Below, piece after piece: positions 3,983 to 40,315 of a stretch of 51,967 nt of DNA. Each line of letters begins with the position of its first letter. The stretch's first letter is position 1. The DNA comes from a virus (Duplodnaviria > Caudoviricetes): IMG/VR virus record IMGVR_UViG_3300013117_000053, positions 1 through 51,967 of that record, one strand, 5' to 3'. The notes under the pieces were generated by a model. That model was not told the origin of the DNA and ran no database searches. It worked only from the letters and a program-made list of their open reading frames with translations. The position numbers were made by a program, and so were the translations under genes.

Positions 3983-4131
3983 GAAATGGATTCAGAATGA
4001 CACTCATGGGGGAGGTTAAGTAGGCTGATATGATGCTACTACTTCTTGTTCCCATTCCGGTTAATTTCGGGCGTGTGTCCGAGCCGGATATGAGTATGCC
4101 AAGCCTGCAAGTGTCATTCTGAAAACATTTC
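3983..4131 (+). ncRNA. Candidate structured leader or ncRNA
   Basis: Perfect 14-bp inverted repeat 3991-4004/4110-4123 enclosing smaller hairpins; no convincing + strand ORF for ~270 nt after the promoter. Confidence 0.4.
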
Positions 4132-6794: not shown

Positions 6795-7169
6795 ATGAAG
6801 TCGCGATCCGCTCATACTGCCGACTGCACGATCTATTCTGCATTGTGTAACGGCAAGTCTGAGGATGGCATTTGTACCTGCGGGTACGGCTGGATGCTGG
6901 CACGGCAGGGCGACTGGTCGGAGATGTATTCGGAGGAGCGAATGATGACTAGCGTTTATGCCTTTCTTCGGCACTGCAATTATTCCAGCCGTTGCCGATA
7001 CAAATACCGGCCGCGACTGCTGTGCCGCCCCGAGTGTCGGCACCATGAGGACTGCGACCACGCAGACCAGCACATGGATACGGAGTATACGCGCCGGGGG
7101 CCGGACCAGGATGGTCGCTGGTATCGTGTGCCGAACGATCAAACTCAGTTTCGGAGCGCAGCGACGTAA
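6795..7169 (+). CDS. Cys/His-rich hypothetical protein ending inside attC-like site 1
   Basis: AAGGAG SD; C-terminus PNDQTQFRSAAT is encoded by the hairpin arm. Confidence 0.55.
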   Translation: MKSRSAHTADCTIYSALCNGKSEDGICTCGYGWMLARQGDWSEMYSEERMMTSVYAFLRHCNYSSRCRYKYRPRLLCRPECRHHEDCDHADQHMDTEYTRRGPDQDGRWYRVPNDQTQFRSAAT

Positions 7170-7190
7170 ATCTAGAGCGCTTTGTTGGGC
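7130..7190 (-). repeat. attC-like site 1
   Basis: GCCGAAC...ctcagtttcg/cgtaaatctagag...GTTGGGC; extra bases on the right arm. Confidence 0.75.
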
Positions 7191-7209
7191 GCTCTGAAAG
7201 GACGGACAG

Positions 7210-7428
7210 ATGAAATGCTATGAGATCACGCCAAGCCCTGATCCTGCATACGACAGCATGATCGTGGAGGCCGATGACACTTGGGGACCAGCCCTTGAGT
7301 TGGTCGAGTCCGCACTAGATGACCAATTCGTGCGTGCTGAGGATGAAGGCAGGCCGTGGACTGACATCACCGTGACGGTGCGGTGTGTGGAGAAAACGCA
7401 AGAGGAAATGGACGCGCTCCATGAGTAG
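7210..7428 (+). CDS. Cassette gene, acidic hypothetical protein
   Basis: AAAGGA SD; bounded by attC-like sites 1 and 2. Confidence 0.7.
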   Translation: MKCYEITPSPDPAYDSMIVEADDTWGPALELVESALDDQFVRAEDEGRPWTDITVTVRCVEKTQEEMDALHE

Positions 7429-7533
7429 CGCCAACGTTGAGCACAGCGGCAAAGAAAGCCGCAGAGAGGACGGTTGATATGAAAAAGAAACGTAAGCGCG
7501 GCTTTCTTTGTACGCTGATGCGTCTGGTTCGGC
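7429..7533 (-). repeat. attC-like site 2
   Basis: CGCCAAC...cagcggcaaagaaagccgc/gcggctttctttgtacgctg...GTTCGGC; loop carries an SD and ATG of a 24-aa ORF (7479-7553). Confidence 0.8.
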
Positions 7534-7563
7534 ATTTTCCGGGCCGGGCGTAGAAAGGAAAGC

Positions 7564-7953
7564 ATGAGAAACAAGCACGAGGAAATGGAAGCCATCGACA
7601 AGGCGCTTGACGAGTTCACCAACGACTGCCGAAGCCCGGACATGGCAAGCCATGATGGCTCACGATGCAGCGAACGCAGAGTTGACTGGCTCGAAACAGC
7701 CGGAGAAAGGCACAGCATGAACCAAGATGGCAAAGCGGCTGTTTCGAGTACGGTCGGACGCCTTGTTCGCCCTTCCTGGGTGAGCATCGAGATGATGGAG
7801 TTTGCCCGTCCGCAAGACGATGACCTATGGCACTGGGCAAACAACCTGAACGCCATGTTGCGCTCTGGCTACTGCAAGAAGTGTGGCCTGACGCCGAATG
7901 GATGCCGCAACGAAGGATGTAGGGCGAACGACAAGCATGAGGGTCAAGCATGA
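7564..7953 (+). CDS. Cassette gene(s): ORF reads through attC-like site 3, with a second start at 7717 inside the hairpin loop
   Basis: SD AAAGGA before 7564; SD-like GGAGAAAGG before ATG 7717; C-terminal CKKC...C...C. Confidence 0.55.
   Translation: MRNKHEEMEAIDKALDEFTNDCRSPDMASHDGSRCSERRVDWLETAGERHSMNQDGKAAVSSTVGRLVRPSWVSIEMMEFARPQDDDLWHWANNLNAMLRSGYCKKCGLTPNGCRNEGCRANDKHEGQA
7669..7771 (-). repeat. attC-like site 3
   Basis: AGCGAAC...ctcgaaacagcc/ggctgtttcgag tacggtc...GTTCGCC. Confidence 0.8.
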
Positions 7954-7998
7954 CAAGCGAAGCGCGGAATGATTGTACCCTCGATGCTCTTGTTGGCC
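7923..7998 (-). repeat. attC-like site 4
   Basis: GGCGAAC...agcatgagggtcaa/ttgTaccctcGatgct...GTTGGCC; extrahelical T and G on the + strand. Confidence 0.85.
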
Positions 7999-8534
7999 TT
8001 CCGGGTCCGTTCTCGGTGATCTACGCTGACCCGCCGTGGTCATACAACGACAAGCGCGGCGGAAAGCCTGCGTGGGGGGCTATGACGTACCCGACCATAC
8101 CGACGCGAGAGATTGCGGCCTTGCCGGTGGCTCAAATCGCAGCGTCCGACTGCGCTCTGTTCATGTGGGCGACCATGCCGCTTCTGCCGGATGCCTTTGC
8201 CGTGCTTGACGGGTGGGGGTTCGACTTTGTGACATGCGCTTTCGTGTGGGTGAAGACAAACAAGAGGGCTGGCACTATCTATTCTGGCATGGGGCACTGG
8301 ACGAACCAAAACGCGGAGCTTTGCCTGTTGGCAAGGCGAGGCAAACCGAAGCGGGTGGCGCGAGACGTGAAGCAGATTGTGCTTGCGCCACGGGGGCGGC
8401 ACAGCGCAAAGCCTGACGAGGTGCGCGACCGGATTGTGCGTCTGATGGGGGACGTTCCAAGGGTTGAACTGTTCGCCCGTGAGCGCGTCCAATGTTGGGA
8501 AGCGTGGGGCAATGAGGTAGAGGCCAACGCCTAG
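7950..8534 (+). CDS. MT-A70 family adenine methyltransferase (cassette-borne)
   Basis: VIYADPPW, LFMWAT, FVWVK, GMGHWT, HSAKP, VELFAR, WGNE motifs. Confidence 0.92.
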   Translation: MTSEARNDCTLDALVGLPGPFSVIYADPPWSYNDKRGGKPAWGAMTYPTIPTREIAALPVAQIAASDCALFMWATMPLLPDAFAVLDGWGFDFVTCAFVWVKTNKRAGTIYSGMGHWTNQNAELCLLARRGKPKRVARDVKQIVLAPRGRHSAKPDEVRDRIVRLMGDVPRVELFARERVQCWEAWGNEVEANA

Positions 8535-8577
8535 GTTCAGCGGTGGCGAAGCTGTACGTTGCAACCTCTGGTTGGCA
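8522..8577 (-). repeat. attC-like site 5
   Basis: GGCCAAC...ggttcagcg/cgttgcaacc...GTTGGCA (56 bp). Confidence 0.8.
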
Positions 8578-8597
8578 GAACAATTAGAAAGGACGAT

Positions 8598-9401
8598 ATG
8601 AAACTAATGCAAGGTGATTGCCTAGAGAGAATGAAAGAGATACCGGATGGAAGTGTGGATATGGTGCTGACCGACCCGCCTTATGGGACGACTGCTTGCA
8701 GGTGGGATAGCATCATTCCGCTTGAGCCTATGTGGGAGCAGTTGAAGAGGGTGACAAAGCCTAACGGGGCTATTGTCATGACGGCAAGCCAGCCGTTCAC
8801 GACCACGCTGATTGCTTCTAATATGAAGATGTTTAAGTATTGTTGGGTTTGGAACAAGAAAAAGGCAGCAAATTTCTTGTTTGGCAATAAAATGCCATTA
8901 AAGATAACAGAGGACGTAGTGGTTTTTTATGGCAAACAACCCACATACAACCCAATAAAACGAGTAAACCCTCTTGGGTCACAAAAACCAGGGCGTAAAG
9001 GCATAGGCAATACCATCAAAGACCACCTTCCGAATTGTCCAGAAAGAAGCAAAGCGGGGAAAAGTTACGAACCAGACAAGTTGTTGCCGGTCTCTATTTT
9101 AGAGATTAGCAAGCCCCATAAGCCAGTCCACCCCACCCAAAAACCAGTAGCCCTAATGGAGTACCTAATCAAGACATACACCAACGAGAATGAAACCGTG
9201 CTGGACTTCACAATGGGCAGTGGCACTACTGGCGTGGCTTGCGCGAACCTCAACCGAGAATTCACCGGAATTGAGAAGGTGGAAGAATACTTCAATATCG
9301 CACAAACGCGGATCGAAGAGGCTATTACTGCCAACACTACTGCTCACGGTCGAGCGGTAGCGAGTACCGTGCAGCAGATTGTTGGAGGTTCCGATGGCTG
9401 A
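8598..9401 (+). CDS. DNA N6-adenine/N4-cytosine methyltransferase, beta class (cassette-borne)
   Basis: GDCLERM, LTDPPYG, HPTQKPVAL, VLDFTMGSGTTG; AAAGGA SD before ATG 8598. Confidence 0.95.
   Translation: MKLMQGDCLERMKEIPDGSVDMVLTDPPYGTTACRWDSIIPLEPMWEQLKRVTKPNGAIVMTASQPFTTTLIASNMKMFKYCWVWNKKKAANFLFGNKMPLKITEDVVVFYGKQPTYNPIKRVNPLGSQKPGRKGIGNTIKDHLPNCPERSKAGKSYEPDKLLPVSILEISKPHKPVHPTQKPVALMEYLIKTYTNENETVLDFTMGSGTTGVACANLNREFTGIEKVEEYFNIAQTRIEEAITANTTAHGRAVASTVQQIVGGSDG
9329..9387 (-). repeat. attC-like site 6
   Basis: TGCCAAC...ctgctcacggt/accgtgcagcag...GTTGGAG; the core site supplies the GGAGG SD of the next gene. Confidence 0.8.
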
Positions 9402-9828
9402 TTTGACAGAAGCAAGATTCGCCGCCAAGTCGGTTGAATACGAGACGCCGCAAGACCTGTTTGACGGGCTGGACGCGGAGTTTGGTTTCACTTGTGACGT
9501 GGCGAGTACGGACGCCAACGCGAAATGTGCGAAGCACTTTACGCTTGCCGACGACGGGCTTGCCCAGCCGTGGGAAGGGGTTTGCTGGTGCAACCCCCCG
9601 TATGGCCGGGAAATGCCGCGATGGATTCGCAAGGCTCGGACAGAGGCGGAAGCAGGGAAAGCAACCACAGTCTTGCTTATTCCGGCCAGGACAAATACCG
9701 GATGGTGGCACGACGAGTGCATGAAGGGTGAGGTGAGGTTCATTCGTGGGCGACCACGGTTCAACGGAGGCAAGCATGGTCTGCCGTTTCCGTTGGCGGT
9801 CGTGGTCTTCCGTACCTCCAACGACTGA
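9394..9828 (+). CDS. Phage-type DNA N6-adenine methyltransferase (Dam family; cassette-borne)
   Basis: YETPQDLF, FTCDVAS, DGLAQPW, WCNPPYG, LIPARTNT, FIRGRPRF. Confidence 0.9.
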   Translation: MADLTEARFAAKSVEYETPQDLFDGLDAEFGFTCDVASTDANAKCAKHFTLADDGLAQPWEGVCWCNPPYGREMPRWIRKARTEAEAGKATTVLLIPARTNTGWWHDECMKGEVRFIRGRPRFNGGKHGLPFPLAVVVFRTSND

Positions 9829-9875
9829 CATCAGCGTTGCGCGAATAGCGCATACGCTGAATGTCTTGGTTGGGT
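9816..9875 (-). repeat. attC-like site 7
   Basis: CTCCAAC...gacatcagcgttgcgc/gcgcatacgctgaatgtc...GTTGGGT. Confidence 0.85.
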
Positions 9876-9904
9876 TTCTCCCGGCCAAGACGGAAAGGAA
9901 CGAG

Positions 9905-10165
9905 ATGGCATACGCTACGATGGATGATTTCAAATACGCAATCGAGACCATGCAACCAAAGCGCGAGGATTGGGACAACACACAAGTATCACGCGGAACG
10001 CCGGAAGATCTTGAGGTTTTCCGAAGAACGCGATGCCTATTTGTCGGTGATCGCATACGCAAAGCAATGAAGTGCGAACACAAATACCGTAGCGCGTTCA
10101 ATCACGAATTGTGCATGACGTGTGGATGCCTTATTGCGGGTGGCCTTAGTAAACCCAACAGGTAA
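9905..10165 (+). CDS. Cassette gene, hypothetical protein with CxH...CxxC
   Basis: AAAGGA SD before ATG 9905; ends KPNR across the final AAC core. Confidence 0.65.
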   Translation: MAYATMDDFKYAIETMQPKREDWDNTQVSRGTPEDLEVFRRTRCLFVGDRIRKAMKCEHKYRSAFNHELCMTCGCLIAGGLSKPNR

Positions 10166-10190
10166 TTCTACAGAAACGATCCATATAACC
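10151..10190 (-). other. Putative attI-like terminal recombination site
   Basis: AAACCCAAC matches the GTTGGGTTT start of the last cassette, but no hairpin follows; the - strand reads GGTTATATGG...ATTACCT-GTTGGGT. Confidence 0.45.
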
Positions 10191-12270: not shown

Positions 12271-14748
12271 ATGGCGCGGATCTTAGAAGGTCTTAAGTTT
12301 GCGAGGCGTGTCCCTCAGAATCGAACAGATTTGGTTATGGAGTCCCGTACTCCTGATGCTAAGGAGCGTACGTTCATTGAGCGTACGCTTCGTGTTCCGA
12401 TATACGAGTTCAGTGACATGCGGGCCTATCTTCGGGTAGGTTGTGAGAAGGTATGGGCGTCGTTCAGGGCGTGTCACTTGACAGCATCGGTTCTGCTTTC
12501 CACTAAGTTTAAGGTGCAGGGCAAAGAGCTTGGAGCTGATGTACAGAATCCTGAATTGAATCGTTTGCTTAGTACGCCTAACCCATTCGATTCATGGGCA
12601 GAGTTGCTGTATCTGTGGGTTTACCATATGAAGCTGACAGGGCGGGCGTACTGGCTTAAAGATGAAATGGATTACAAAGGTAGACCGAAATACCTTTATC
12701 CATTGATGCCTCAGTATGTAGCGCCCATACCTCACCCTACCGAAAAAATTAGTGGGTACATATATCGGGTTAATGGGCAGGAGCAACACTTTGAACGGGA
12801 TGAGATAATTCATTTTCGTCGTCCTCATCCTATGAAACTGCACGGGGCATTAGGCGATGTAGCAGCGTCTCAACCACTTTATCGAGAGTACATAGCACGA
12901 AACACACTTGAGGAGAAGTTTCTTGCTAATGGGGCAATGCCGTCTGGCATTCTTACTAAGAAAGAGGCTGAAGAGGATGAAGAGGAGTGGGCTAAGCTGA
13001 AGAAGTGGTGGAAGTCTGAGTACGAGGGGGAGCGTAACGTAGGTAAGACGGCTTTTCTGAATGGCGAATGGGCATACACGAAGCTGGGACTGACACATTC
13101 TGAGATGCAATCCATTGAGAACGAGAAATGGAGCATCGAGCAGATATTTACCAATCATGGTGTGCCGCTTTCGATGGCGGGGATCAAAGAAGCTGCAAAC
13201 TACGCTTGCCTTCCTGCTGGGGAGCTAGTCACAACGCAAAATGGGGTGCCTGTTCCTATCGAGCAATTAGAGGCTGGAGATGTTATTGTCCAGTTTGATC
13301 CTGCGATGGGTAGTGTTGAGGTTCCTGTTGAAGCGATTATCGAACAGGGTGACGCTGAGGTTTTGGAGCTTGTCACGGATTCACGTACTCTTCGAGCATC
13401 AAATAACCATCCAGTTTTATGTGTGAATCGTACAGCGGGAACAGGGCGTAACGGGAAACGAGTTGAGGTAGCTCTGGAATACAAATACGTTGAGGATCTT
13501 TGTGTAGGCGATATAGTGGTATGCTTAGACGAGCTTATGTGTAAAAGGAATAAGTGTATTCCTATTGAGAACCGTGATCCTATTGATGCTGCATACGCAC
13601 TTGGACAGTATGTAGGAGACGGCAGCGGTGCTTCCCTTACACGTATACGAATTGGGGGGTTTACTATTGCTACACATGAAAAAGAGGGTTACCAGTCAGT
13701 AGTAGCTGATGCGTTTAAGGCATTTGGGTTTGTGCCGTCAGTTAATCCTACTAGCATTAGGTTTCAGTCTGCGGATTTTGCGCGTGATATGGTTAGTGCA
13801 GGTTTTGGCGGTAGGTCAGGTGAGAAGCGTATTCCTGAATGGGTCTTTTCACTTCCAGTTGAACAACAACTACATTTTGCTGCGGGATTGATTGACGCGG
13901 ATGGTTGTGTTGCAGAGCGTGGTAGTATTACGTTTGCTGTAGCAAATAAAGAGTTGGCTAGTGACTTTAAGCATTTGCTTATGTGTCTCGGAGTTCCAAC
14001 CAGTAACTTGCGTCCATGTGAGCAGTTCACGAACTATGGGGATGTTGTAAGTTGGCGTTTTACTGCTGGAATTGTGAGAGAAAACAAGCGGCTACCTTTG
14101 CGACACCCCAAAAAAGCACAACGGCTTGCAGTAGCGGAAAGTAAAGGTGATAAGGCAGGTAAGGGGATTCCGGGTGCGTATCGTTTACCTTCTGATCTTG
14201 TGTTGCCCGAGGGTTATGGCGTACAGAAGGTTAGAAGTATACGTTCTCTTGGTAAGATGCCAGTCTATGATTTAGCAACTACTGGGTACCACAATTTTCT
14301 TGCTTCTGGCATTGTCACACATAATACGGCGCGGCAAGACGAGATTAACTTTCGTAAGTACGAAATTGTTCCCCTTCTGGATTTGTTGGTAGGCAAGCTG
14401 AATGGCGAAGAGACAGCGGTGGGTAAGCCTGTATTTGTGCGGGCTTTTTCTTCTATATGGGAATTGGCATACGAGTTATCAGGCTTGATTGATGTTGAGC
14501 AGGTAGTGAAGGATTACGGTCCTCTTGTGGATAGGGGTGCGCTAACGCCGAATCAGTTACGGGAATTATGCGGGTTGGAGCGTGACGAGGGTAATCCGTT
14601 GCTTGATCAGTATTTTGTGAATAGAAACCGTGTACCTATTGAGTTTGCGGGATTCTCAACTCCGACAGATGCGGAGCGTGAAAGAGATCGTAGAGAGAAT
14701 GAATCTATTCTTCCCGAAGGGGAGGAAGATGATGAAGTAGAGGAATGA
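12271..14748 (+). CDS. HK97-family portal protein with intein
   Basis: LLSTPNPF, GRAYW, LYPLMP, DEIIHFR, FLANGAMPSGIL, GVPLSMAG, LTPNQLRE. Confidence 0.93.
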   Translation: MARILEGLKFARRVPQNRTDLVMESRTPDAKERTFIERTLRVPIYEFSDMRAYLRVGCEKVWASFRACHLTASVLLSTKFKVQGKELGADVQNPELNRLLSTPNPFDSWAELLYLWVYHMKLTGRAYWLKDEMDYKGRPKYLYPLMPQYVAPIPHPTEKISGYIYRVNGQEQHFERDEIIHFRRPHPMKLHGALGDVAASQPLYREYIARNTLEEKFLANGAMPSGILTKKEAEEDEEEWAKLKKWWKSEYEGERNVGKTAFLNGEWAYTKLGLTHSEMQSIENEKWSIEQIFTNHGVPLSMAGIKEAANYACLPAGELVTTQNGVPVPIEQLEAGDVIVQFDPAMGSVEVPVEAIIEQGDAEVLELVTDSRTLRASNNHPVLCVNRTAGTGRNGKRVEVALEYKYVEDLCVGDIVVCLDELMCKRNKCIPIENRDPIDAAYALGQYVGDGSGASLTRIRIGGFTIATHEKEGYQSVVADAFKAFGFVPSVNPTSIRFQSADFARDMVSAGFGGRSGEKRIPEWVFSLPVEQQLHFAAGLIDADGCVAERGSITFAVANKELASDFKHLLMCLGVPTSNLRPCEQFTNYGDVVSWRFTAGIVRENKRLPLRHPKKAQRLAVAESKGDKAGKGIPGAYRLPSDLVLPEGYGVQKVRSIRSLGKMPVYDLATTGYHNFLASGIVTHNTARQDEINFRKYEIVPLLDLLVGKLNGEETAVGKPVFVRAFSSIWELAYELSGLIDVEQVVKDYGPLVDRGALTPNQLRELCGLERDEGNPLLDQYFVNRNRVPIEFAGFSTPTDAERERDRRENESILPEGEEDDEVEE
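13207..14325 (+). mobile_element. Intein (373 aa) with in-frame LAGLIDADG homing endonuclease
   Basis: NYA|CLPAGELV, ASNNHP block B, LGQYVGDG and FAAGLIDADG, VYDL...HNFLASGIVTHN|T. Confidence 0.95.
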
Positions 14749-14751: not shown

Positions 14752-15111
14752 ATGACTATGGAAGCGGTATTGCTGGCTAGTGCCTCGCTTACGAGTGTGG
14801 GGTTGGTCGTCGCTCAGGCAGCAGATCCGATAACAGCGGCGGGTAAGGTAGCTCAGTTAGGGGCTACGGGTATTCTTGCATTAGCTCTGATTGTTGTGAC
14901 GTATGCTTATTGGTCTGAGCATAAGCGGCATATCAAAGAGAGTGCGGATCGTGAGAATGAGCATCGGGATTTTGTGCAGAAGTTGCAGGATCAAGCAAAC
15001 AAATATAGTGAGACACTTCAAGTTGTAATCGCTGAGTCAAGTAGGTTGCATGCGGAAAACTCTCTTAGGCTGACAGAAGTAGCTCAATTACTCCGTGAAG
15101 CCAAGGGGTGA
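14752..15111 (+). CDS. Membrane protein with coiled-coil tail (holin-like candidate)
   Basis: Hydrophobic N-terminus plus TM segment GILALALIVVTYAYW; helical C-terminus. Confidence 0.55.
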   Translation: MTMEAVLLASASLTSVGLVVAQAADPITAAGKVAQLGATGILALALIVVTYAYWSEHKRHIKESADRENEHRDFVQKLQDQANKYSETLQVVIAESSRLHAENSLRLTEVAQLLREAKG

Positions 15112-15539
15112 ATGACGTGAAGCGTACAGATCCGTTTGTGCTGTTGGTAGAGGATGATCGTGATTGGCGTATTGTGTTTAAGCATTATGCAGAGACAGCT
15201 TTCCCCGATGTAATAGTACATTGTGTGAGAACAGTGCATGATGCGATAGCTTTTCTTCGCACGGGGCGTTACTGCATGTGTGTGGTTGTAGATTATGAGT
15301 TGCAGGGTATGCGGGGAGATGCGGTATTGGCAGCACTAGCATTTATGGATGTGCCTGTAGCTATATGGACAGCACATTCTAAGGCTCATCTTAGAGAGAT
15401 GGGGCATTGCTCTTACGGCGATGATGAATGCCTTGTCTTTGAGAAGGGTAATGATGACAAGAGGTTCATGGAGTGGCTGAGTCATGTTGGTAAGGAGCAG
15501 ACTTCAAAATGCCTTATCGCCCGCCCAAAGCAACCATAG
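15108..15539 (+). CDS. Stand-alone response-regulator receiver (REC) domain protein
   Basis: VLLVEDD, VVVDYEL phospho-acceptor Asp, IWTAHS, FEK conserved Lys. Confidence 0.85.
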   Translation: MNDVKRTDPFVLLVEDDRDWRIVFKHYAETAFPDVIVHCVRTVHDAIAFLRTGRYCMCVVVDYELQGMRGDAVLAALAFMDVPVAIWTAHSKAHLREMGHCSYGDDECLVFEKGNDDKRFMEWLSHVGKEQTSKCLIARPKQP

Positions 15540-17128
15540 TTCGTCGTAGGCAGTTACCCCGGCACCACCTATCTCCCGGCAGGGCTGTGCAGCTTATTAA
15601 GAGTAGCCATGTACCGGAGCGGGGATGGAGTGCGCAGACTTTTCGGGGGGAGAACGGTAGGCGACTGATTGATGATTTTGTAATAGCTCATCGAGTTGTG
15701 GTGGCGAAGGGCATTCGCAGGCTGGCACCCCAGATCAAGATCTACTTCAAGTACGTTCTACGGCATACACTCGACAAGTTTACTGAGCGGGCATTGCGTG
15801 TGTATGGTATCCCTCTCAAATCCGGTAGGAAGGATGTACTACAGTCAGTTGTTCTTTCTCCCGGCATGCATGAGGATCTGTGGGCACAGGCGTTAGCAGA
15901 CGTTCTACAGGAAGCAGGGCTTGACTTCTCTATGAATCTAGCTGGAGCTATTCAGGGGGGTGTGGACGCTGCATATGCTACGACAGCTTCTCTTATGGGT
16001 GTGGTAGCACGTCCGGGGACGCAAGGAGTTCTTAATTATCGGGCACAAATGTTGGGGCAGCGTATTACCCGAATATCCGATACTACCAGAAGCATGTTTC
16101 AGCAAATCCTAGGTAATGGTATACAAGACAATCTTACGCCTGTGGAGATGGCAGAGGTATTGCGTTCTCGTTTTCCTCAGATGGCATCATGGCGAACGGC
16201 GATGATTGCCCGTACAGAAATGGGAATGGCAGCAGATGCGGGGCGCATACAGGGGTTGCAGGAATCAGAAGTAGTGACTCATGTATCGGTGATTGGGTGT
16301 GAGGCACGTGAGGCGCATAGCCCTTCGTATCGTGGGGAGTCTACGTGTAATATCAGTGATGTACCTATTGAGGATGCGGAGACGCTGGACTTTCATCCTA
16401 ACCATACGGGATGCATTGTGCCAAGTCGTATGCGTGATGCTTTTGGTGAGGAAGTCGAGTTGACGGATGAGCAAATGGGAGATGCTCCCGCGCTGTTTGA
16501 TGAGGGGGCACCGATAGAGCGAGCGTATACGTCACCGGAAGAGGCAGCACGCGATCTTGATTTTGTGGGGTGGGGCATGCGTTCGGTAGATGGAGTTGCC
16601 GCAACTGAGTATGCTGCGCTGGGTGTTTTGGCGCAAGTGGACAGTCCGTATAGTTATTCCCATATGAACCACTATTTACGAGCTGGGGCATTGGCGTTAG
16701 CGGAGCAAACGATGGAAGAGGTAACGCAAAGGCTTGCGTTGATTGATGCTGCGATAGCGCGGGCAAGTGCCCCCTTTCAATTGCGGTTATATCTTGGTAG
16801 TACTTTGGAGGAGTTCGGTATAGTACAAACTACTCCAGCGGCGTTACGAAATCTGGTAGGTAGGCAATTTACTGATCCGGGGTATATGCTTACGTCTGTG
16901 TCTTCGCAGGTTGTTACCGGGAATATGATTCCTAGTGGGTTTCTTTTGACAGTAAGAATACCTGTAGGGCATGGGGCTATGCCGTTGTTTGTTGGAGGTG
17001 CTGTACGTGATTCGATAGCGCCTATACGTGGAGAGGGGGAGGTACTGCTTCCTCGTGGTACGTCTATCATAGTTCGTGCCGTAAATACGTATGGGCCGGT
17101 TACTGAGATTATGGCAGAAGCGGTCTGA
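15509..17128 (+). CDS. MuF/SPP1 gp7-like minor head protein fused to a VIP2-type ADP-ribosyltransferase-like domain
   Basis: ITRISDTTR, IARTE, HPNH..CI (MuF); Y.HMNHYLR, FTDPGYMLTS, EGEVLLPRGT (ART). Confidence 0.85.
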   Translation: MPYRPPKATIVRRRQLPRHHLSPGRAVQLIKSSHVPERGWSAQTFRGENGRRLIDDFVIAHRVVVAKGIRRLAPQIKIYFKYVLRHTLDKFTERALRVYGIPLKSGRKDVLQSVVLSPGMHEDLWAQALADVLQEAGLDFSMNLAGAIQGGVDAAYATTASLMGVVARPGTQGVLNYRAQMLGQRITRISDTTRSMFQQILGNGIQDNLTPVEMAEVLRSRFPQMASWRTAMIARTEMGMAADAGRIQGLQESEVVTHVSVIGCEAREAHSPSYRGESTCNISDVPIEDAETLDFHPNHTGCIVPSRMRDAFGEEVELTDEQMGDAPALFDEGAPIERAYTSPEEAARDLDFVGWGMRSVDGVAATEYAALGVLAQVDSPYSYSHMNHYLRAGALALAEQTMEEVTQRLALIDAAIARASAPFQLRLYLGSTLEEFGIVQTTPAALRNLVGRQFTDPGYMLTSVSSQVVTGNMIPSGFLLTVRIPVGHGAMPLFVGGAVRDSIAPIRGEGEVLLPRGTSIIVRAVNTYGPVTEIMAEAV

Positions 17129-31647: not shown

Positions 31648-32727
31648 GTGGGCGAGTTTCACCTAAGTGTAGAGTTCACTGAAATTTGTGGTGTAGATGT
31701 GCGGGGGACACGAGAGGAGCATGTCATATGTTGCTGTTCGTCTTCTGTTTCATCGTCCTCAGTGTCTTCCTCTGTAAGTAGCCGTAGTGCTTTGTCTGAG
31801 TCGGAAGTGTCTCAATCGGTAGCCGAATCGGGGGGTAGCGAGAGTGGGAGTGTCAGCAGTCGAAGTAGTAGGAGTAGTGTTAGTAGCGAATCCTCTAGTG
31901 TATCTAGTAGTATTTCGTCTAGTAGCGAGGAGAGGATTTACCCTAACAAGTATTACTGTGTTCAAGAAGATCAATGGGACTTGACCGTCGGGGGGTGTCC
32001 TCCGGGTGTGCCAGATAATACTGTGTATAAGGTATTGCAGGGCAAAGATATCGTAGACATTTGCACGCAAGGTCCATTATTTTACTATGAGCATACAGTA
32101 CTGTCAGGGCCGTTCGATACTGCCGAAGAGGCACAACCTTGCCCCCCTTCTTTTCAGGCTGAAGAGGTTATGCTTCTTCATCCTCCTGAGTTTCCGGGGA
32201 TACCACACGATGAGTATGTGCGGCTTGCTACACTAGATGGTAAGAATGTTACCTTGCAGGGTGCTGGGAAGGCGTATGCTGGAGAGGGTTATCGAGTAGC
32301 GTGGAATGCAGATCGGTATCATTGGGAGTTATGGGATAGTGTAGGTTTTGTAGGTGAGTCTATTACGCATACTGCAAGCGATGCGGGTGGGTTGTATCGA
32401 ACAACACGGGGTGCTCGTACGCGGGGGTATAGGCAGTTTCATACGCTAAGACACGAGAAGGGATGGGAGGGGGATTTTCAGCTTGCACCGAAAGGTAGCA
32501 GACGATACCTTGGCAATCGTCAGCTAAAGAACAGGATGCGTCTTGAGTTTGCTGATCTTCGAGAGATGGACAAGTTTCTCCGTAACCTGTCGGGGTTAAT
32601 GTCTGTTGGGAAGAAGCCAGCACGGCTAAGAGTTAAACGCCGCAATCGCTCAGTACGCTATGATCGGGGGGAGAGCATCCTTGATGAGCCTAACGCCGGT
32701 ATTCATTCAGAATCCGAAAACAGCTAG
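31648..32727 (+). CDS. Cys/Ser-rich putative tail fibre or adhesin protein
   Basis: ICCC followed by a ~60-residue Ser-rich tract; same frame as the upstream gene. Confidence 0.6.
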   Translation: MGEFHLSVEFTEICGVDVRGTREEHVICCCSSSVSSSSVSSSVSSRSALSESEVSQSVAESGGSESGSVSSRSSRSSVSSESSSVSSSISSSSEERIYPNKYYCVQEDQWDLTVGGCPPGVPDNTVYKVLQGKDIVDICTQGPLFYYEHTVLSGPFDTAEEAQPCPPSFQAEEVMLLHPPEFPGIPHDEYVRLATLDGKNVTLQGAGKAYAGEGYRVAWNADRYHWELWDSVGFVGESITHTASDAGGLYRTTRGARTRGYRQFHTLRHEKGWEGDFQLAPKGSRRYLGNRQLKNRMRLEFADLREMDKFLRNLSGLMSVGKKPARLRVKRRNRSVRYDRGESILDEPNAGIHSESENS

Positions 32728-33289
32728 TACTTCTATACGCAAAGCACTACCCGGAGTAAAGACGGCATCTTTGCGGAGACACCGTACGGTACACCTACCC
32801 CTCAAACATTGGCACATTCAACGCCAAATCGAGCATGCTGAACGTCCGTGGGTATTTGGGGTAGTACGTCATCCTTTCGATAGGTTCATTTCAGCATGGG
32901 CTTATTTCAAGAAGCCACGTAAACGTACGCTAACGGATTTCTATGTACTGGAGGCTTGTTTACAGGATGGAACTATAAATGACTTTATACGCACTGTAAG
33001 TTTTGAAAAGATTTCAAAGTGGGTGCCCCACTTTAGACGACAGCAGTGGTTTTTCACGAATAGGCAGGGCAAGAGAGATGCTGTTGATCAGCTACTACGT
33101 TTTGAGAATATCGAGCATGAGTTTTCAACGTTGTGCTCGAAGCTGAGTATCCCTCCTTTTGAGTTGCCAAAGATGCGGACGACTAAGCATCCAAGGTGGC
33201 AGGATGTGTTAGGGCAGTCATCTATTAGGAAGTTATTGCGTTTCTACAAACCGGATTTTGAGAGGTACGGGTATGAGTGGGAAGCTTGA
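32684..33289 (+). CDS. Sulfotransferase (Sulfotransfer_2-like)
   Basis: FIQNPKTASTSI (5'-PSB), VVRHPFDRFISAW (3'-PB), HFRRQ, LRFENI, YKPDFERYGY; start uncertain (32660 or 32684). Confidence 0.88.
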   Translation: MSLTPVFIQNPKTASTSIRKALPGVKTASLRRHRTVHLPLKHWHIQRQIEHAERPWVFGVVRHPFDRFISAWAYFKKPRKRTLTDFYVLEACLQDGTINDFIRTVSFEKISKWVPHFRRQQWFFTNRQGKRDAVDQLLRFENIEHEFSTLCSKLSIPPFELPKMRTTKHPRWQDVLGQSSIRKLLRFYKPDFERYGYEWEA

Positions 33290-34025
33290 TCCAATACTAG
33301 TATGGCCTATCAAACCAAAAGGGGGTAGTCGCTGGGATAATAATGAATTGCGCTTCTCTTTGCGATCAGTGCAGAAGCATTGGCATACGTATAACGATAA
33401 GCCGCCGAAAGTGTTTATCCTCACTACAGTAAATGTTCCGTGGTTGAACGAAGAAGAGGTAACGCTTGTACCTGTCCGGGGATACGCAGAGGCAATTATT
33501 ACTACGTGGGAGCTAGCGCGAGAGCATACGCAATCCCACTATTATGTGTGGATGAATGATGATATTTGTTTTCTGCGAGACACTGTAGCTGAGGATCTGA
33601 TGACTGCATTGCATTTGGGCAAAATGCCTCGTCCGAAGGAGGGCGAAAAGCGAGTAAAAAATGGTTGGCGTAGGAAGCTGCATGGGGTTCGCAATAGGCT
33701 ATGGGGGATGGGGATTGAGCCACTAGACTTTTCCACGCATGATCCGTACTTGTTCAATGCAGACAGGATGGAGATAGTTGCTGGATTATTCGGTCTCCAG
33801 TACAAGACTCCGCTAGAGACTGCATACTATAATTTCTGGCGAGAGCAGATACCCCATCGGCGGGCTAAGGGTGATAGAATTGTACGTCATCGAAAAGGGC
33901 GGGGTATCCCCCTTACGTTGAATGGTGAGAGATTTTTGAATTACTCCGAGCAGGGGTGTGATGCCACAATGAAGGGTTATCTGTCTGGGATGTTTCCGTA
34001 CAAATCTCGCTACGAGAAAGGTTAG
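33273..34025 (+). CDS. Stealth-family hexose-1-phosphate transferase-like protein
   Basis: NNELRFSLRSVQKH, VPWL, WMNDDICFL, THDP motifs. Confidence 0.75.
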   Translation: MSGKLDPILVWPIKPKGGSRWDNNELRFSLRSVQKHWHTYNDKPPKVFILTTVNVPWLNEEEVTLVPVRGYAEAIITTWELAREHTQSHYYVWMNDDICFLRDTVAEDLMTALHLGKMPRPKEGEKRVKNGWRRKLHGVRNRLWGMGIEPLDFSTHDPYLFNADRMEIVAGLFGLQYKTPLETAYYNFWREQIPHRRAKGDRIVRHRKGRGIPLTLNGERFLNYSEQGCDATMKGYLSGMFPYKSRYEKG

Positions 34026-34030
34026 GGATA

Positions 34031-34480
34031 ATGACTGATACTAATTATCAGGAGCAGATGGAAAAGGACCGTCAGGAGGCCGCTGCGTGGTCTCAGGGGC
34101 ATTGGAAAGAGCTACAGCAATTGTGGGTAGATCTGCATATTTATGCTGCGCGGTTTTCGCTTTCTCCAAGTACAGAGGATGTAGATGATGCAGAGTCTTG
34201 GCTACAACAATGGTATGTCAAGTTCCCCCCGGATTGTCCGTGCATAGCGGAGTGGACCCGGATCTTAGAGGTGTGTCCGCCCCCTATAGCTAGCGGGGCA
34301 TTAGAGTTTTTTTGGTGGACTGTAGCAGCACATGATAGGGTAAACGTCTATCTGGGTAAGCGGGTATGGGCAAACAAGAGCAAAACACACCCTTTGTTAC
34401 AGCAGTTATTGGAAACCGATGAAGGGAGTCGTGCAGAGTATAAAAGGAGAATGTCTGCTCCTGCTATCAATAAGTGTTGA
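34031..34480 (+). CDS. Erv1/Alr-like FAD sulfhydryl oxidase (CxC variant)
   Basis: LWVDLH...DCPC...WWTVAAHDRVNVYLGK matches the Erv pattern W..LH/PCxxC/W...HN.VN..LGK. Confidence 0.75.
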   Translation: MTDTNYQEQMEKDRQEAAAWSQGHWKELQQLWVDLHIYAARFSLSPSTEDVDDAESWLQQWYVKFPPDCPCIAEWTRILEVCPPPIASGALEFFWWTVAAHDRVNVYLGKRVWANKSKTHPLLQQLLETDEGSRAEYKRRMSAPAINKC

Positions 34481-34487
34481 GGTGTAG

Positions 34488-35357
34488 GTGAAAGCTGTAC
34501 TGTATTTAATGCCTAGACAGGCAAAACCAGCATGGAATACTCATGTGTCTAGGGCGTGGCCTGCGTTCAAGAGAGGTATGCAACGGCACGGAGTTCAGGT
34601 GTATACTTACGTAGAGGACAGTAACCGTGCTACCCCTCCTTATGGTGATGTTGTAGTTACGATGGGGTGGAGAAAGACAAGGAATCCAGTGGTATGTGGT
34701 GCTAGAAATCTTGTACTGGACTCTGGGTATGTAGGTGCGCGGAAGGGAGCGTGTGTGTCTTTTGGGTGGGATGGGTTGAGTGGTATGGCACAGGGGATAC
34801 CGCCAATACCAGGTAGGGGTAAATTATTGCTAGGGAGAGATATGGTTCCATGGCGCGGTCGGGAGGTGCGTAATGTCCTACTAGCGGGGCAGGTGCCGGG
34901 AGATTCTGCGTTGGATGGAGTAGGGCGGTATGCTACGTGGCTTAGAGTGGTAGGGGGGGAGTTAAGAGTTGCGGGGTATCATGTATTATATCGGCCACAC
35001 CCACTTGCTCATGGTAAAATTAGACGGTCTAGAGGTAAGCGCAGAGATAGTGTGCGTAGGTTACTTGGGTTATCTGTGTCAGGTAAGCCTTTGGTGGATG
35101 ATTTGAACTGGGCAGATATGGTGGTATCGTGGAGTAGTAATACGCTTGTGGATGCAGCCATACACGGTATTCCTGTTTGTCCCTTTTCGCGTATAGCTAT
35201 GGTATGGGGGATACGTACTCCGTGGGGTATGTTTGCTACCCCTAATTTATGCGATAGGGATGGGTGGCTGGATTACGTGTGTTCTAGGCAATGGAACATA
35301 CCAGAGTTATTGTCGGGGGAGGCGTGGGATTACATACGGCAAGGAGTATACATGTGA
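34488..35357 (+). CDS. GT-B glycosyltransferase resembling capsule synthesis (KpsS/KpsC-like) family
   Basis: LAGQVPGDSA, YRPHP, WSSNTLVDAAIHGIPV, QWNIPEL.SG. Confidence 0.75.
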   Translation: MKAVLYLMPRQAKPAWNTHVSRAWPAFKRGMQRHGVQVYTYVEDSNRATPPYGDVVVTMGWRKTRNPVVCGARNLVLDSGYVGARKGACVSFGWDGLSGMAQGIPPIPGRGKLLLGRDMVPWRGREVRNVLLAGQVPGDSALDGVGRYATWLRVVGGELRVAGYHVLYRPHPLAHGKIRRSRGKRRDSVRRLLGLSVSGKPLVDDLNWADMVVSWSSNTLVDAAIHGIPVCPFSRIAMVWGIRTPWGMFATPNLCDRDGWLDYVCSRQWNIPELLSGEAWDYIRQGVYM

Positions 35358-36061
35358 GTAAGAGGGTAATATATACCTCAGCAGTGTCTAGGCACATGCC
35401 GTGGTGGGGTCGTTGGGTAAAAAAACGATTTGAGCGATACGCTACTAGGGTAGGCGCTACTTTGGTTAATTTACCATCATGTCGGCATCGTGGTAGATTA
35501 GGGAAGTACTGGGTTAAGTTCGATGCTTTTAAGAGATCGCTGGTAGTAGCAGAGCAGTATCCTGATGCACAGTTTTTATGGTTAGATGCTGATGTGATTT
35601 TGCGACCTATGAAAGTTCCAAATTTATTTGAGTTGGGGGAGGGATTATGGTCGTGTGTTTCGGATAATGGTATGAGTTATCGTCCACGGTCTTATAGGCA
35701 GAATCATTATATGTTTGGTGTTCCATTGATGGCTCCCCATCCGACTAATGCTATTATTCTGTGGGGCAAGAAAGAGGCAAGAGCTATACTACGAGAATAC
35801 GCGAACATACCCTCAGTGTTGCGAATAGAGCAGCGACTGACAGACGAGGGAGGGTTGTGCGTGTTAGCGTATAAAGCTGAGATACCTATACAGTGGGTGC
35901 CTGCGGGCTGGCATAGGATGACTAGTAAGTTTCATAGGAGTACTCAGTTTTTCCACGCGGCGGGTGGTGGCAAGATGAAGAAATGCCGTAGGGCATTGCG
36001 TATTATTCGACGGGTGAGACAGAATGAGAGGCGACGAGCGAAAATAAGAGGTAAGAGGTAA
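35354..36061 (+). CDS. GT-A glycosyltransferase (GT34/GT8-like)
   Basis: YATRVGA, WVK, LWLDADVIL DxD motif, TDEG, FFHAAG; GTG start near 35354 inferred. Confidence 0.75.
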   Translation: MSKRVIYTSAVSRHMPWWGRWVKKRFERYATRVGATLVNLPSCRHRGRLGKYWVKFDAFKRSLVVAEQYPDAQFLWLDADVILRPMKVPNLFELGEGLWSCVSDNGMSYRPRSYRQNHYMFGVPLMAPHPTNAIILWGKKEARAILREYANIPSVLRIEQRLTDEGGLCVLAYKAEIPIQWVPAGWHRMTSKFHRSTQFFHAAGGGKMKKCRRALRIIRRVRQNERRRAKIRGKR

Positions 36062-36063
36062 TT

Positions 36064-36717
36064 ATGTCTGCGCGTGTGTTGTATACTTCTGCGGGACCAG
36101 AGCTACGGTACTGGAAGATTAGTAAACCATACATTGAGCATTACGCTAATAAGGTAGGGGCAAAACTAGTAGTTATCCCAAAGACACGTAGAGTACAGCG
36201 TATGCGGGTATTGTTTGATGCTATGGAGAAATCATTGTTGTGTGAGAGCGATACTGTGTGCGCATGGGTAGATGCGGATATTATTGTACGTAGAACAGCC
36301 CCTGACATATTCGGCACACCCGACAAGTTGCTATTTTGTTCCCCAGAACCGGCTAAGCGAGTACACCCTAGATGGATTAGGGAGTATAAATCTTTTGGCG
36401 TACTCCATCCCCGTCCTTATGTTATTACAGCGATTGTACGTTGGTCTACAAGATATGCGAGACGCATCGTGTCATGGTTAGAGGTTAATGAGGGTAGCCT
36501 GCCTGACAGTATGGATGATCAATCCATATGTACGCTTGCTTGTTGGCAAATGGATATTGCGGTTGCTTATTTTCCATCTACATGGCATAAGATGCATTGG
36601 CGAGTAAAGCGAGGAACGCAATTTTTGCATGCCGCGTCAAGGAACAAAGTCAAAAACTTATGTAAGCTAGCGAAATTGGCAGACCGTAGAGATAAGATGG
36701 TATTGGGGAAGTTGTGA
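36064..36717 (+). CDS. GT-A glycosyltransferase, paralog of the upstream gene
   Basis: YANKVGA, WVDADIIV, DDQS, FLHAAS. Confidence 0.75.
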   Translation: MSARVLYTSAGPELRYWKISKPYIEHYANKVGAKLVVIPKTRRVQRMRVLFDAMEKSLLCESDTVCAWVDADIIVRRTAPDIFGTPDKLLFCSPEPAKRVHPRWIREYKSFGVLHPRPYVITAIVRWSTRYARRIVSWLEVNEGSLPDSMDDQSICTLACWQMDIAVAYFPSTWHKMHWRVKRGTQFLHAASRNKVKNLCKLAKLADRRDKMVLGKL

Positions 36718-37409
36718 GAAAAAGAAAAAAACACAAGGTAATAGCATCGCCTCCTGCTGTGGATTACCATAGGATACGGGGAATGGGTGAGCCTTGTGAC
36801 AGGGATACGTATGCTATGGGAAATCTGGCATACCTAATAGGTAAGCACAACATAGATACAGTGGTAGAGACAGGGGTGCGGAGTGGGAGTACTACGTTAT
36901 TTTTTGCTAATTTGGTAAGTAGGGTATATGGGGTAGACCTGTGTATATCAGATGTAGCAAAGGATAGGGTGTTGTCGTGTATGCGTAGACGGTGGTTAGC
37001 TTCTCATAGTGTTACGTGGTACGAGGGAGACAGTCAGAAGTTAATGCCTGTTATCGTTAGTAGTGTACGTACAGAGCCAGTGCTGTTTTACTTGGATGCA
37101 CACGACTCGCCTAGTAACCCAAAAGGCATGACCCCTGTACCGTTACTTGGAGAATTGCAGGCTATAGCAAGTATGAGTACTCCTCCTGTAGTGGTAGTAC
37201 ATGACTGTGCAGTACCAGAGGAGCCTGAGCATATCTGTATGCCTAATGCTCATAATGGGGGAACTATATGCTATGATTTTATGAAAGAAATACTAGCGGA
37301 GTTTCACTGGAATTGGCGTATTGAGTATAACTCTTTTAGTAGAGGTAAGGGTGCGGCACCGTGGTATGATACCCCAAGTATGGGAGTTGCTTACATTCTT
37401 CCGTGTTGA
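36714..37409 (+). CDS. Class I SAM-dependent methyltransferase (small-molecule or glycan type)
   Basis: VVETGVRSGST, EGDS, LFYLDAH, EL..I, VVVHD. Confidence 0.8.
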   Translation: MRKRKKHKVIASPPAVDYHRIRGMGEPCDRDTYAMGNLAYLIGKHNIDTVVETGVRSGSTTLFFANLVSRVYGVDLCISDVAKDRVLSCMRRRWLASHSVTWYEGDSQKLMPVIVSSVRTEPVLFYLDAHDSPSNPKGMTPVPLLGELQAIASMSTPPVVVVHDCAVPEEPEHICMPNAHNGGTICYDFMKEILAEFHWNWRIEYNSFSRGKGAAPWYDTPSMGVAYILPC

Positions 37410-37427
37410 AAACTTTTCAAATAGTGA

Positions 37428-37456
37428 TTGACAAAAGATCATGAGTATGCCATACT
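37428..37456 (+). promoter_or_regulatory. Sigma70-type promoter (TTGACAAAAGA class)
   Basis: TTGACA-17 nt-CATACT with extended -10 TG. Confidence 0.8.
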
Positions 37457-37515
37457 AGTCTTGACAATCAGATAAGGCCCATAGATAAAAGGGGCACAAA
37501 AAAAGGAGAGACGGC

Positions 37516-39138: not shown

Positions 39139-39148
39139 GAGAGTTGTT

Positions 39149-39784
39149 ATGAATCATGTGACACTACAAGCACACACGGGGCAACTCTCCTCTGAGCTAG
39201 GTACGTTTAAGATGTACCTGTTTCACAGTCCGTCAAGTAAGTCGCTACGCAAGGGGCGTAAGGAGACGTTTATGGGTAACGCTATAAACGACACACCCGC
39301 AATCGGGCGAAAATTGGGAACGCAGACCATACCAGCACGGATAAATATCCGGCCTGAGATTGGTGGTAAGATGTTTGACACTACGTGGTTGCTTAACGAA
39401 GGTGAGGTGTACAAGGTGTTTGCCAAGGGGCGAATGGGGGGGCATCTCGCACGGGAGCGTACTGCTATCCTGTTTATCAAATTGCGGGATGATGGACCAC
39501 TAACACGTATCAAAGCTACTATGCCGAATGTGTGCCCTGATGCAAACTTCTCTGAGTGGACTATCACGGGACGTTTTGATATTCTGTCACTGGAGGAAGC
39601 TGAGTTTGAGGGTATCAACATTATCGAACACCTCCGAGGACAGGCAGCGGAACATAGTGTACGGAATATGTTTACAGTAGAACAGATGGAACAAGAGCGC
39701 CGGTCTCGTCCGAAGATTGTCATGAAAAGGGTTGGTGATAGGATTATGCCGGTGCAGCGACGGAGGAGGAGTCTCGACATTTAG
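39149..39784 (+). CDS. Hypothetical protein
   Basis: AGGAG SD before ATG 39149. Confidence 0.65.
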   Translation: MNHVTLQAHTGQLSSELGTFKMYLFHSPSSKSLRKGRKETFMGNAINDTPAIGRKLGTQTIPARINIRPEIGGKMFDTTWLLNEGEVYKVFAKGRMGGHLARERTAILFIKLRDDGPLTRIKATMPNVCPDANFSEWTITGRFDILSLEEAEFEGINIIEHLRGQAAEHSVRNMFTVEQMEQERRSRPKIVMKRVGDRIMPVQRRRRSLDI

Positions 39785-39787
39785 GGC

Positions 39788-39816
39788 TTGACAAAAGATC
39801 ATCCTCTTAGTATAGT
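39788..39816 (+). promoter_or_regulatory. Sigma70-type promoter (TTGACAAAAGA class)
   Basis: TTGACA-17 nt-TATAGT. Confidence 0.85.
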
Positions 39817-39856
39817 GAATATTGATGATGAAGAACCGTAGGAAAGGAGAGGCGTT

Positions 39857-40300
39857 ATGAGTCATACGACTAAGATTAAGCAAGTGCCGATGCGTTCGGA
39901 GTCCGCAATGCGGGCGGCGATTGCGGCACTGAAAGCGAAGGGGGTGGAGTGCTCCCTTTTGGAGAATGTCAAACCGCGTATGTACTACGCGGATCAGCAC
40001 AAAGAGTGTCCGCTGGTACTCCATCTCCCGCAATCCCGTTACGATGTTGGATTTGACCGGCAGGATGACGGTACGCTTATTCCGGTGTTTGACGGCTACC
40101 GGGGTGATGTGGGGAGGCAAATCGGGGTGAACATGGACGGGCTGCAAGGCACGGATAGGAGTGCTTCCAGTATCGGCCAGTTGCTGCAAGAATACAGCAA
40201 GGCTGTCGTGATTGAGACGGCGGCAATGAACGGTCAGATTGTTGATGGTATTACTGAGAACGCTGACGGCACCGTGTGTGTTCAGCTTTCGGGAATGTAG
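39857..40300 (+). CDS. DUF1257/Ycf35-like protein
   Basis: MSHTTKI, YDVGF...DGT...FD, LLQEYS, ENADGTV. Confidence 0.75.
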   Translation: MSHTTKIKQVPMRSESAMRAAIAALKAKGVECSLLENVKPRMYYADQHKECPLVLHLPQSRYDVGFDRQDDGTLIPVFDGYRGDVGRQIGVNMDGLQGTDRSASSIGQLLQEYSKAVVIETAAMNGQIVDGITENADGTVCVQLSGM

Positions 40301-40315
40301 GAGAAAGTGAACGCT

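Follow-up and report, generated by a model that had tools for sequence, protein, structure and literature searches.

Phage cassette arrays and the present locus

The closest described relatives of the locus analysed here are the phage clusters of attC sites lacking integron integrases (CALINs), 17 of which were reported from 10,705 phage genomes, with methyltransferase cargo; IntI1 acted on the bottom strand in five of the six phage sites that were tested (Qi et al. 2023, PMC9892861; statements on cited work refer throughout to the accessible parts of each source). Bottom-strand selectivity orients promoterless genes behind the integron promoter Pc (PMC8946536, PMC2727003), and the bottom strand of attC is laid out with two extrahelical bases and a G after the R'-box AAC (PMC2727003). 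The subject of the present analysis is IMG/VR virus record IMGVR_UViG_3300013117_000053, a linear contig of 51,967 nucleotides (nt), about 60% complete, which was analysed whole and is called the window below. It very probably holds a phage cassette array of seven units in which the attC-type hairpins are oriented opposite to the genes; the units are likely shuffled by a host-supplied integron integrase.

With seven sites in 2.7 kb and neither the 7 kb to the left nor the 42 kb to the right containing an integrase, the array qualifies as a CALIN; it is real and mobile and works as integron cassette arrays do, but falls short of a complete integron. The CALINs of TJE1, PH101 and P12002L (PMC9892861) are likewise attC clusters without intI that carry methyltransferase genes, so that the remark of the first-pass annotation that cassette arrays are rarely described in phages has to be qualified; the published phage CALINs hold 2-4 sites, as against 7 here and up to 12 detected per array in the family of sites to which the window belongs. 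Bacterial integron arrays (PMC2727003, PMC8946536, 10.1101/030866) share with the window the AAC/GTT box, an unpaired spacer of 5-6 nt, two extrahelical bases, an R-box complementarity that is completed in the circle, and duplicated and reordered cassettes. Unlike them, the window has its genes on the predicted bottom strand, the hairpin at the 5' end of the gene and open reading frames (ORFs) that overlap the sites; it lacks intI in cis, and its transcription would proceed in the direction of the entry site instead of leaving it. The same site family also occurs in canonical form beside IntI in genomes of the Planctomycetota-Verrucomicrobiota-Chlamydiota (PVC) group. No paper on inverted, translation-coupled phage cassette arrays was found in a literature search that left most subscription papers outside.

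The features of the array are listed below. The strand given for S1-S7 is the attC top strand, and scores compare the coding strand as bottom strand with the opposite polarity.

6967..7135, + strand: possible decayed cassette 0; 8-nt complement of the S1 upstream flank, with C instead of G before it, in frame at the GTT valine position and no hairpin before; tentative, as the window has 5 occurrences of this 8-mer and its complement
7134..7186, - strand: S1, decayed attC-type site; holds the stop of ORF 6795-7169; scores 7.0 vs 6.5; no fold; a contig of run X3 crosses it with 0 differences
7210..7428, + strand: cassette 1 gene of 72 aa without assigned function; runs X1-X3 contain near-identical copies
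7433..7529, - strand: S2, inverted attC (predicted); loop with Shine-Dalgarno motif and ATG (7479) of a 24-aa leader in the GTT frame; score 12 vs 6
7479..7674, + strand: cassette 2 cargo; leader of 24 aa (7479-7553), followed by an ORF from 7564 that continues across S3 into gene C
7673..7767, - strand: S3, inverted attC (predicted); AAC-frame stop overlaps the ATG at 7717 (ATGA) after a Shine-Dalgarno motif; score 11 vs 2.5
7717..7953, + strand: cassette 3 gene (gene C), 78 aa; start in S3, stop in S4; no family match
7927..7994, - strand: S4, inverted attC (predicted); stop of gene C overlaps the MT-A70 start codon (7950); score 12 vs 7.5
7950..8534, + strand: cassette 4 gene, MT-A70-family DNA methyltransferase (PF05063, E 2e-28; phrog_359); first 15 codons within S4, stop within S5
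8526..8573, - strand: S5, inverted attC (predicted), weak stem; score 10.5 vs 5; z -1.4/-0.9
8598..9401, + strand: cassette 5 gene, N6/N4 DNA methyltransferase (PF01555, E 1.5e-32); reads through the whole of S6
9333..9383, - strand: S6, inverted attC (predicted); flank after GTT is the Shine-Dalgarno motif of the Dam gene; score 11 vs 7
9394..9828, + strand: cassette 6 gene, Dam-family (phage N6-adenine) methyltransferase (PF05869, E 2.5e-25); stop inside S7
9820..9871, - strand: S7, inverted attC (predicted), best-formed; score 13 vs 10; z about -6
9905..10165, + strand: cassette 7 gene, 86 aa, no family match; reads in frame through the terminal AAC
10151..10171, - strand: terminal junction, candidate attI-like entry site; complementary core, AAC, 5 nt, ATT; no hairpin

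The three DNA methyltransferases (MT-A70, N6/N4 and Dam-family) bear out the earlier description of the cargo as phage-type.

Site architecture and offset complementarity

All seven AAC...GTT sites of the first-pass annotation were found where it had placed them, with cores at 7134/7184, 7433/7527, 7673/7765, 7927/7992, 8526/8571, 9333/9381 and 9820/9869 and core-to-core lengths of 48-97 nt, and a lone AAC at 10157 closes the array. For comparison, attC sites are imperfect palindromes of about 55-140 nt with invariant AAC and GTT triplets at their ends. Its central claim, that the flanks of a site pair with the next site and not with each other, holds as well: exact runs past the core in the offset pairs are 2, 2, 6, 5, 5, 6 and 6 nt, a sum of 32 as against 10 for flanks of the same site. 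Permuting the offset pairings gives a mean sum of 11.1, with 7 of 40,320 arrangements reaching 32, and when the permutation is restricted to the six units with hairpins at both ends, 6 of 5,040 reach the observed sum. Five of the seven pairs are perfect, and the two near matches, the first two, align only across a 1-nt and a 2-nt indel, just as five perfect and two near matches had been counted. A one-base offset between the flank of GTT and the AAC flank that pairs with it, seen in unit 1 of the window and in the L157 unit at 1098, is perhaps a recurring junction slip.

What the window sites have in common is shape, not sequence. A repeat search of the window returned no family for them, and an Rfam search of the sites gave one chance match only. 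When folded as single-stranded DNA and compared with 200 shuffles (S6 and S7 with 5-7 extra 3' bases), S2, S3, S4, S6 and S7 reach z scores of -2.4 to -6.7, while S1 forms no hairpin in the array form (z +0.7/+0.3); the attC-like folding proposed earlier thus stands for five sites, is weak in S5 and fails in S1. Computed circle forms are 2.9-8.2 kcal/mol lower in five of six cases, that of S3 being no lower. A geometry detector with a background of 0.1 hits per block-shuffled window places 4 of the 7 sites at threshold and finds nothing elsewhere in the window.

Polarity of the sites

Offset complementarity fits either polarity, so the decision has to come from an alignment of the arms. On the coding strand of S2-S7, AAC is followed by 5-6 nt, and inward from GTT come 5 nt, three pairs, an unpaired base, six pairs and an unpaired T; the unpaired bases thus lie on the coding strand at positions 9 and 16, the latter being T in six of six. 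These six sites score 10.5-13 when the coding strand is taken as the bottom strand but 2.5-10 in the reverse polarity, and AACG occurs in six of the seven sites. The layout equals that of the aadA7 bottom strand in Table S3 of Qi 2023 (PMC9892861; compared by eye), and as a control, for a tested TJE1 site with its genes on the opposite strand, the detector chooses the strand published as bottom. By arm geometry and two-way scores, the coding strand of the window is the attC bottom strand in six of seven sites, the hairpins being inverted relative to the genes, with a predicted crossover between AA and C. A canonical cassette has its ORF on the attC top strand and its own attC after it; here the ORFs lie on the predicted bottom strand and the hairpin of each precedes it. 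The first-pass reading as integron cassettes therefore survives as to attC-type sites and, from the offset match, circular intermediates, and it had missed the inversion and the overlap with reading frames.

Inverted sites have a published counterpart. In PH101 attC2, which IntI1 recombines, the bottom strand coincides with the strand that carries the flanking genes; recombination of an inverted phage site by IntI1 is thus proven, and P12002L attC1 appears, by eye, to be inverted as well; the TJE1 array is canonical, unlike the window. The accessible text of Qi 2023 (PMC9892861) calls TJE1 and PH101 typical arrays and does not remark on inversion, nor does it mention codons inside sites, reordering between related phages or a terminal entry site.

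Movement and reordering of cassettes

If the sites are inverted, a hairpin would travel with the gene downstream of it, and breakpoints in relatives would fall at AAC. Site pairs that have only the 30-nt upstream flank in common differ in their hairpins in 11 of 11 cases, those with only the downstream flank in common (n=9) have hairpins 65-100% alike, six of them at 85% or more, and pairs sharing upstream flank and hairpin alone number zero. The ordinary integron polarity, with each hairpin closing the preceding gene and the crossover between G and TT of the coding strand, would also produce the offset complementarity and could draw on the few breaks seen on the GTT side; the zero just given, the unpaired bases on the wrong arm in six of seven sites and the closure of the array by a complete unit and a lone AAC make it very improbable.

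The clearest case of reordering is the viral records G012 and G020, whose backbones are 97-99.9% identical over long stretches and whose DNA is the same up to the first AAC; beyond it, three identical AAC-bounded units of 309, 262 and 207 nt, and a fourth of which the first 127 nt are identical, stand in different order, G020 ending inside its array. One unit is present twice in G017. At loci L160, L169 and L176 an S4-like hairpin (96% identical in L160/L169) precedes an MT-A70 gene at 42-44% identity with the same end and a different next hairpin, and in L151 a hairpin related to S6 stands ahead of a Dam-family gene at 46%. In three runs of two studies, contigs break off at 7436 and 8529, a single base past an AAC, or differ from the window upstream of 7927, 9331 and 9818, at or beside AAC, and single window units recur in them near-identical with other neighbours. 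Exchange of cassettes among phages, as first proposed, is thereby borne out; of the predicted breaks at both cores, those at AAC are found (G012/G020 and the contigs) and those on the GTT side are rarer.

Could the array instead be an inert block, acquired once from another phage and reordered by general or illegitimate recombination between similar hairpins? Base composition sets it apart from its surroundings (GC 0.547 over 6967-10159, 0.469 and 0.487 on either side), sites of this kind are absent from G029, a complete terminase relative, S1 and the indels in units 1-2 mark the left end as decayed, and RecT-like genes lie near one array. Yet the breakpoints have little beyond AAC in common and the adjoining hairpins are unrelated, which is not expected from homology-driven exchange; perfect cores are kept in five of seven units, and single window units are near-identical elsewhere with other neighbours. 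We consider an inert block improbable, while block import and later site-specific shuffling are compatible.

Some further observations concern the history of single cassettes. On the reverse strand of L160, before the site at 4005-4070, about 18 bases ahead of the first AAC equal the end of the N6/N4 methyltransferase unit of the window, whose gene is missing there; the cassette-end remnant acts as left junction. Three copies of one cassette body lie at L172:5091-7046, and one of them has lost its hairpin and is fused behind another unit. Runs X1-X4 also show joints inside methyltransferase genes, likely from other organisms; no weight is given here to the missing coverage of the phage flanks in these runs or to the habitat with which they are labelled. 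A right-to-left age gradient in the window was considered and dropped, site scores along 12 other arrays having no clear trend, and covariation of x/x' among homologous units was too sparse to separate selection from templated repair.

The site family in viruses and bacteria

Seed patterns were built from the window sites, so that the counts given here cover this site family only, and related contigs among them are not independent. The first pattern matched 33 stretches in viral contigs, two variants added 24 and 4 (the last designed for sites with a ribosome-binding motif), and at least 127 stretches matched the first pattern in bacterial and archaeal assemblies, many of the bacterial matches listed being in Kiritimatiellae, Lentisphaerae and Verrucomicrobiota. 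From these loci the geometry detector retrieved 149 distinct viral sites and 173 genome sites, the genome side here and below being counted among the matches listed. Offset runs of at least 4 nt join 70 of 104 viral and 58 of 97 genome neighbouring pairs; same-site runs of that length occur in 15 of 148 and 14 of 172. The detector under-counts other attC types: the reported sites of MW202573 and P12002L escaped it, and in TJE1 and in PH101 it recovered only one of the two tested sites.

The two sides differ in polarity. When arrays with at least three sites are compared, bottom strand and purine-rich strand coincide in 25 of 25 viral arrays but in only 2 of 20 from bacterial assemblies (counted over loci L186-L264, those with long flanks), and the two exceptions carry phage-type genes: RecT, exonucleases or a phage methyltransferase. 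For 49 genome units of at least 300 nt, the ORF that fills the unit lies opposite the bottom strand in 39, on the same strand in 1 and is unclear in 9. Cargo strand in viral arrays is settled, at the level of sequence matches, by PHROG: 16 of 63 site-strand viral ORFs match, among them methyltransferases, Lar-like and NinG-like proteins, vs one weak match among 36 opposite ORFs (63 of 66 and 36 of 37 candidates, duplicates dropped). By predicted geometry, the family sits canonically in bacterial assemblies and inverted in viral arrays.

Most MT-A70 and Dam relatives are not cassettes, for of 152 gene-anchored loci (1.36 Mb in all) just three, L074, L151 and L152, gave detector sites; the closest Dam relatives, L131 (80% amino acid identity) and L132 (64%), have none, and terminase relatives, at best 55% identical, showed no array. 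Record G005 (L356, L357), a phage record of 41.8 kb, has two arrays of 12 and 6 sites on opposite strands, both ending in a nearly identical hairpin-less terminal sequence. Contigs L262 and L189, binned as Desulfobacteraceae and Planctomycetaceae, combine inverted arrays with phage-type genes; they may be prophages or mis-binned phages and offer possible leads to a host.

Integrase and host

The statement that the window contains no integrase stands: neither the Pfam scan nor a six-frame search with PF00589 and PF00239 found a tyrosine or serine recombinase in the 60%-complete contig. The ORF listed at 45231-45794, whose translation was not clean, lay outside the Pfam scan and is covered by the six-frame search. 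Nor was IntI found in 51 other viral records (46 with pattern or detector sites, 3 with pattern matches and no good site, 2 terminase relatives), of which two encode tyrosine recombinases, three proteins in all and none of them IntI. Two bacterial loci, L192 and L234, have this site pattern next to IntI (367.7 and 286.5 bits, cut-off 265), and IntI scores above the cut-off in 15 of 22 bacterial genomes picked from pattern matches vs 0 of 14 controls. A host IntI acting in trans would be the simplest reading, and the hosts are likely PVC bacteria such as Kiritimatiellae and Lentisphaerae.

Another enzyme might recombine attC-shaped sites, either a divergent host tyrosine recombinase or one encoded in the unsequenced part of the phage. 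The incompleteness of the contig leaves space for it, the non-IntI tyrosine recombinases of two viral records would be of the kind in question, and the terminal site is not a described attI. Against this, the geometry fits IntI substrates and the same pattern flanks true IntI genes, PH101 attC2 is a published IntI1 substrate, and five complete or nearly complete array-bearing records (G001, G012, G013, G017 and G021) have no PF00589 match. Such an enzyme is unlikely, if marginally less so than the inert block.

Shuffling by host IntI could proceed as follows. Each unit, as sequence and comparison show, extends from the C of one AAC through hairpin, GTT and gene to the AA of the next. The coding strand, when single-stranded, would fold, and host IntI would cut between AA and C (between G and TT on the other strand). 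The unit would then leave as a circle, in which the hairpin stem becomes fully paired, and might re-enter at another hairpin or at the attI-like site of the downstream end. Expression would come from the phage's own transcription and not from an integron Pc promoter, the likely benefit being fast turnover of methyltransferases and small accessory genes.

Several observations weigh against this account, beside the dependence among related contigs mentioned above. Position 9 varies (G, G, C, C, A, A in S2-S7), a variation also seen in bacterial sites; the polarity of S1 is ambiguous by its two scores, and S5 folds weakly. The attC core consensus is RYYYAAC / GTTRRRY, and only 2 of the 7 window cores follow it strictly; the IntI-adjacent sites of L192 and L234 deviate likewise. 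GTTRRRY is also the core given in Qi 2023 (PMC9892861). A strict per-unit ORF test on viral units of at least 300 nt is weak, with 6 on the site strand, 2 opposite and 6 unclear, and it is here that the PHROG matches decide. Only 10 of the 51 other viral records are at least 90% complete, which leaves room for a phage-encoded enzyme, and no circle junctions were seen in the assembled contigs. Finally, breaks on the GTT side occur too, and exchange on the bottom strand does not explain them: an S6-like hairpin (94%) in L166 and an S7-like one (87%) in L179 precede other genes, run X3 has S4 and S6 with other downstream letters, and pieces of X1 and X2 end beyond the GTT of S1, at 7188. Such hairpins on other genes, together with the stops at 7188, point to a second, rarer event that would join a hairpin to a new gene; one gene body does occur with two unrelated hairpins.

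Reading frames through the sites

The hairpins had been said to separate single genes, and while they are present, they are not simple separators: six of the eight AACs in the window are in-frame asparagine codons of the upstream ORF, six of seven hairpins contain an AAC-frame stop, S2-S4 hold an ATG in the GTT frame coupled to that stop, and unit 2 consists of a leader and a second ORF. The pattern extends to the family. Among 70 viral units with offset runs of at least 4 nt, 69 have an ORF and 52 read through the next AAC, which is read as in-frame asparagine in 50 of the 52 (p about 1e-21). AAC-frame stops occur in 100 of 149 viral vs 45 of 173 genome hairpins, the two other frames of the viral hairpins giving 71 and 90. 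With AAC read as asparagine and a stop in most hairpins, a gene would stay translatable beside most neighbours. Of the viral ORFs, 25 start within their own hairpin; GTT is in frame in 19 of these, and 21 have a Shine-Dalgarno motif. Among 48 long viral hairpins, motif and ATG fall in the GTT frame in 25 and in another frame in 20. A start codon with ribosome motif in the hairpin is common, not universal.

The array end

Viral arrays often close, after the last hairpin, at a complementary AAC without a hairpin. The motif AAC-N5-A.T follows this pattern at 17 of 29 lone terminal viral AACs, a count inflated by related phages, vs 4.3% of all AACs and 10 of 149 hairpin sites; the AAC at 10157 is one of these termini. 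The IntI-proximal junctions of L192 and L234 are lone AACs too, AT-rich beyond. The terminal junction may thus be an attI-like entry site; alternatively, it could be a decayed hairpin arm. IntI is also known to insert cassettes at double-stranded GWT sites outside integrons, termed attG (Loot et al., 10.1101/2022.09.11.507474), and the terminal junction of the window has GTT on its minus strand; unlike attG, the phage termini have more than GWT in common (AAC-N5-A.T), suggesting a dedicated site.

Genomic setting

The contig belongs to a tailed phage with terminase, portal, prohead protease, capsid, DnaB and DNA polymerase A genes, all on the + strand, and the array lies among small genes between terminase and portal. 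Six DNA methyltransferases are encoded, three as array cargo and three elsewhere (1269-2273, 49379-50518 and 51069-51965; one C5 and two N6/N4), with no detector sites near the latter. A bottom strand on the lagging template favours attC folding (PMC8946536); a replication-strand bias for the array, possible from the positive GC skew of the contig, was dropped because coding bias explains the skew equally well.

Elsewhere, the portal protein (12271-14748) is split by an intein with a LAGLIDADG-like domain, and between portal and head genes (14752-15539) lie a small gene with a hydrophobic N-terminus and a response-regulator receiver-like gene. A head-module gene of 539 aa (15509-17128) has a C-terminal ADP-ribosyltransferase domain (PF03496) and, from its position, is presumably a MuF-type fusion. 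The cluster at 32660-41000 has matches to sulfotransferase, Stealth CR2, Erv1/Alr, CmcI-like, AAA ATPase and Cpn10 proteins, and the Pfam domain of the 1245-aa DNA polymerase A (45810-49547) falls in two stretches, suggesting an insertion.

Implications for phage evolution

An array class that uses attC sites backwards and is wired into reading frames suggests that attC chemistry can serve a second genome architecture. To our knowledge, the origin of cassettes is an open question, and the Dam gene with its 80%-identical site-less relatives, together with near-identical hairpins on unrelated genes, may offer a handle on it. Two seed patterns led to about 50 viral records, compared with the 17 CALINs of the published survey (PMC9892861). 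Integron cassettes often encode anti-phage defence (10.1101/2024.07.02.601686); if host IntI acts on the phage arrays, phages would be exploiting the machine of anti-phage cassettes to reshuffle their methyltransferases.

It is tempting to go further, although we are here slightly more doubtful than confident, and to propose that many uncultured phages run a reversed, integrase-less integron of their own. A promoter-distal, attI-like entry site would lie within an operon; the attC hairpins would act as translation adaptors, offering a stop to the preceding gene and a ribosome site and start to their own; host IntI would be borrowed to shuffle counter-defence genes; and hairpins would be re-joined to ordinary phage genes, so that phages may themselves make new cassettes.

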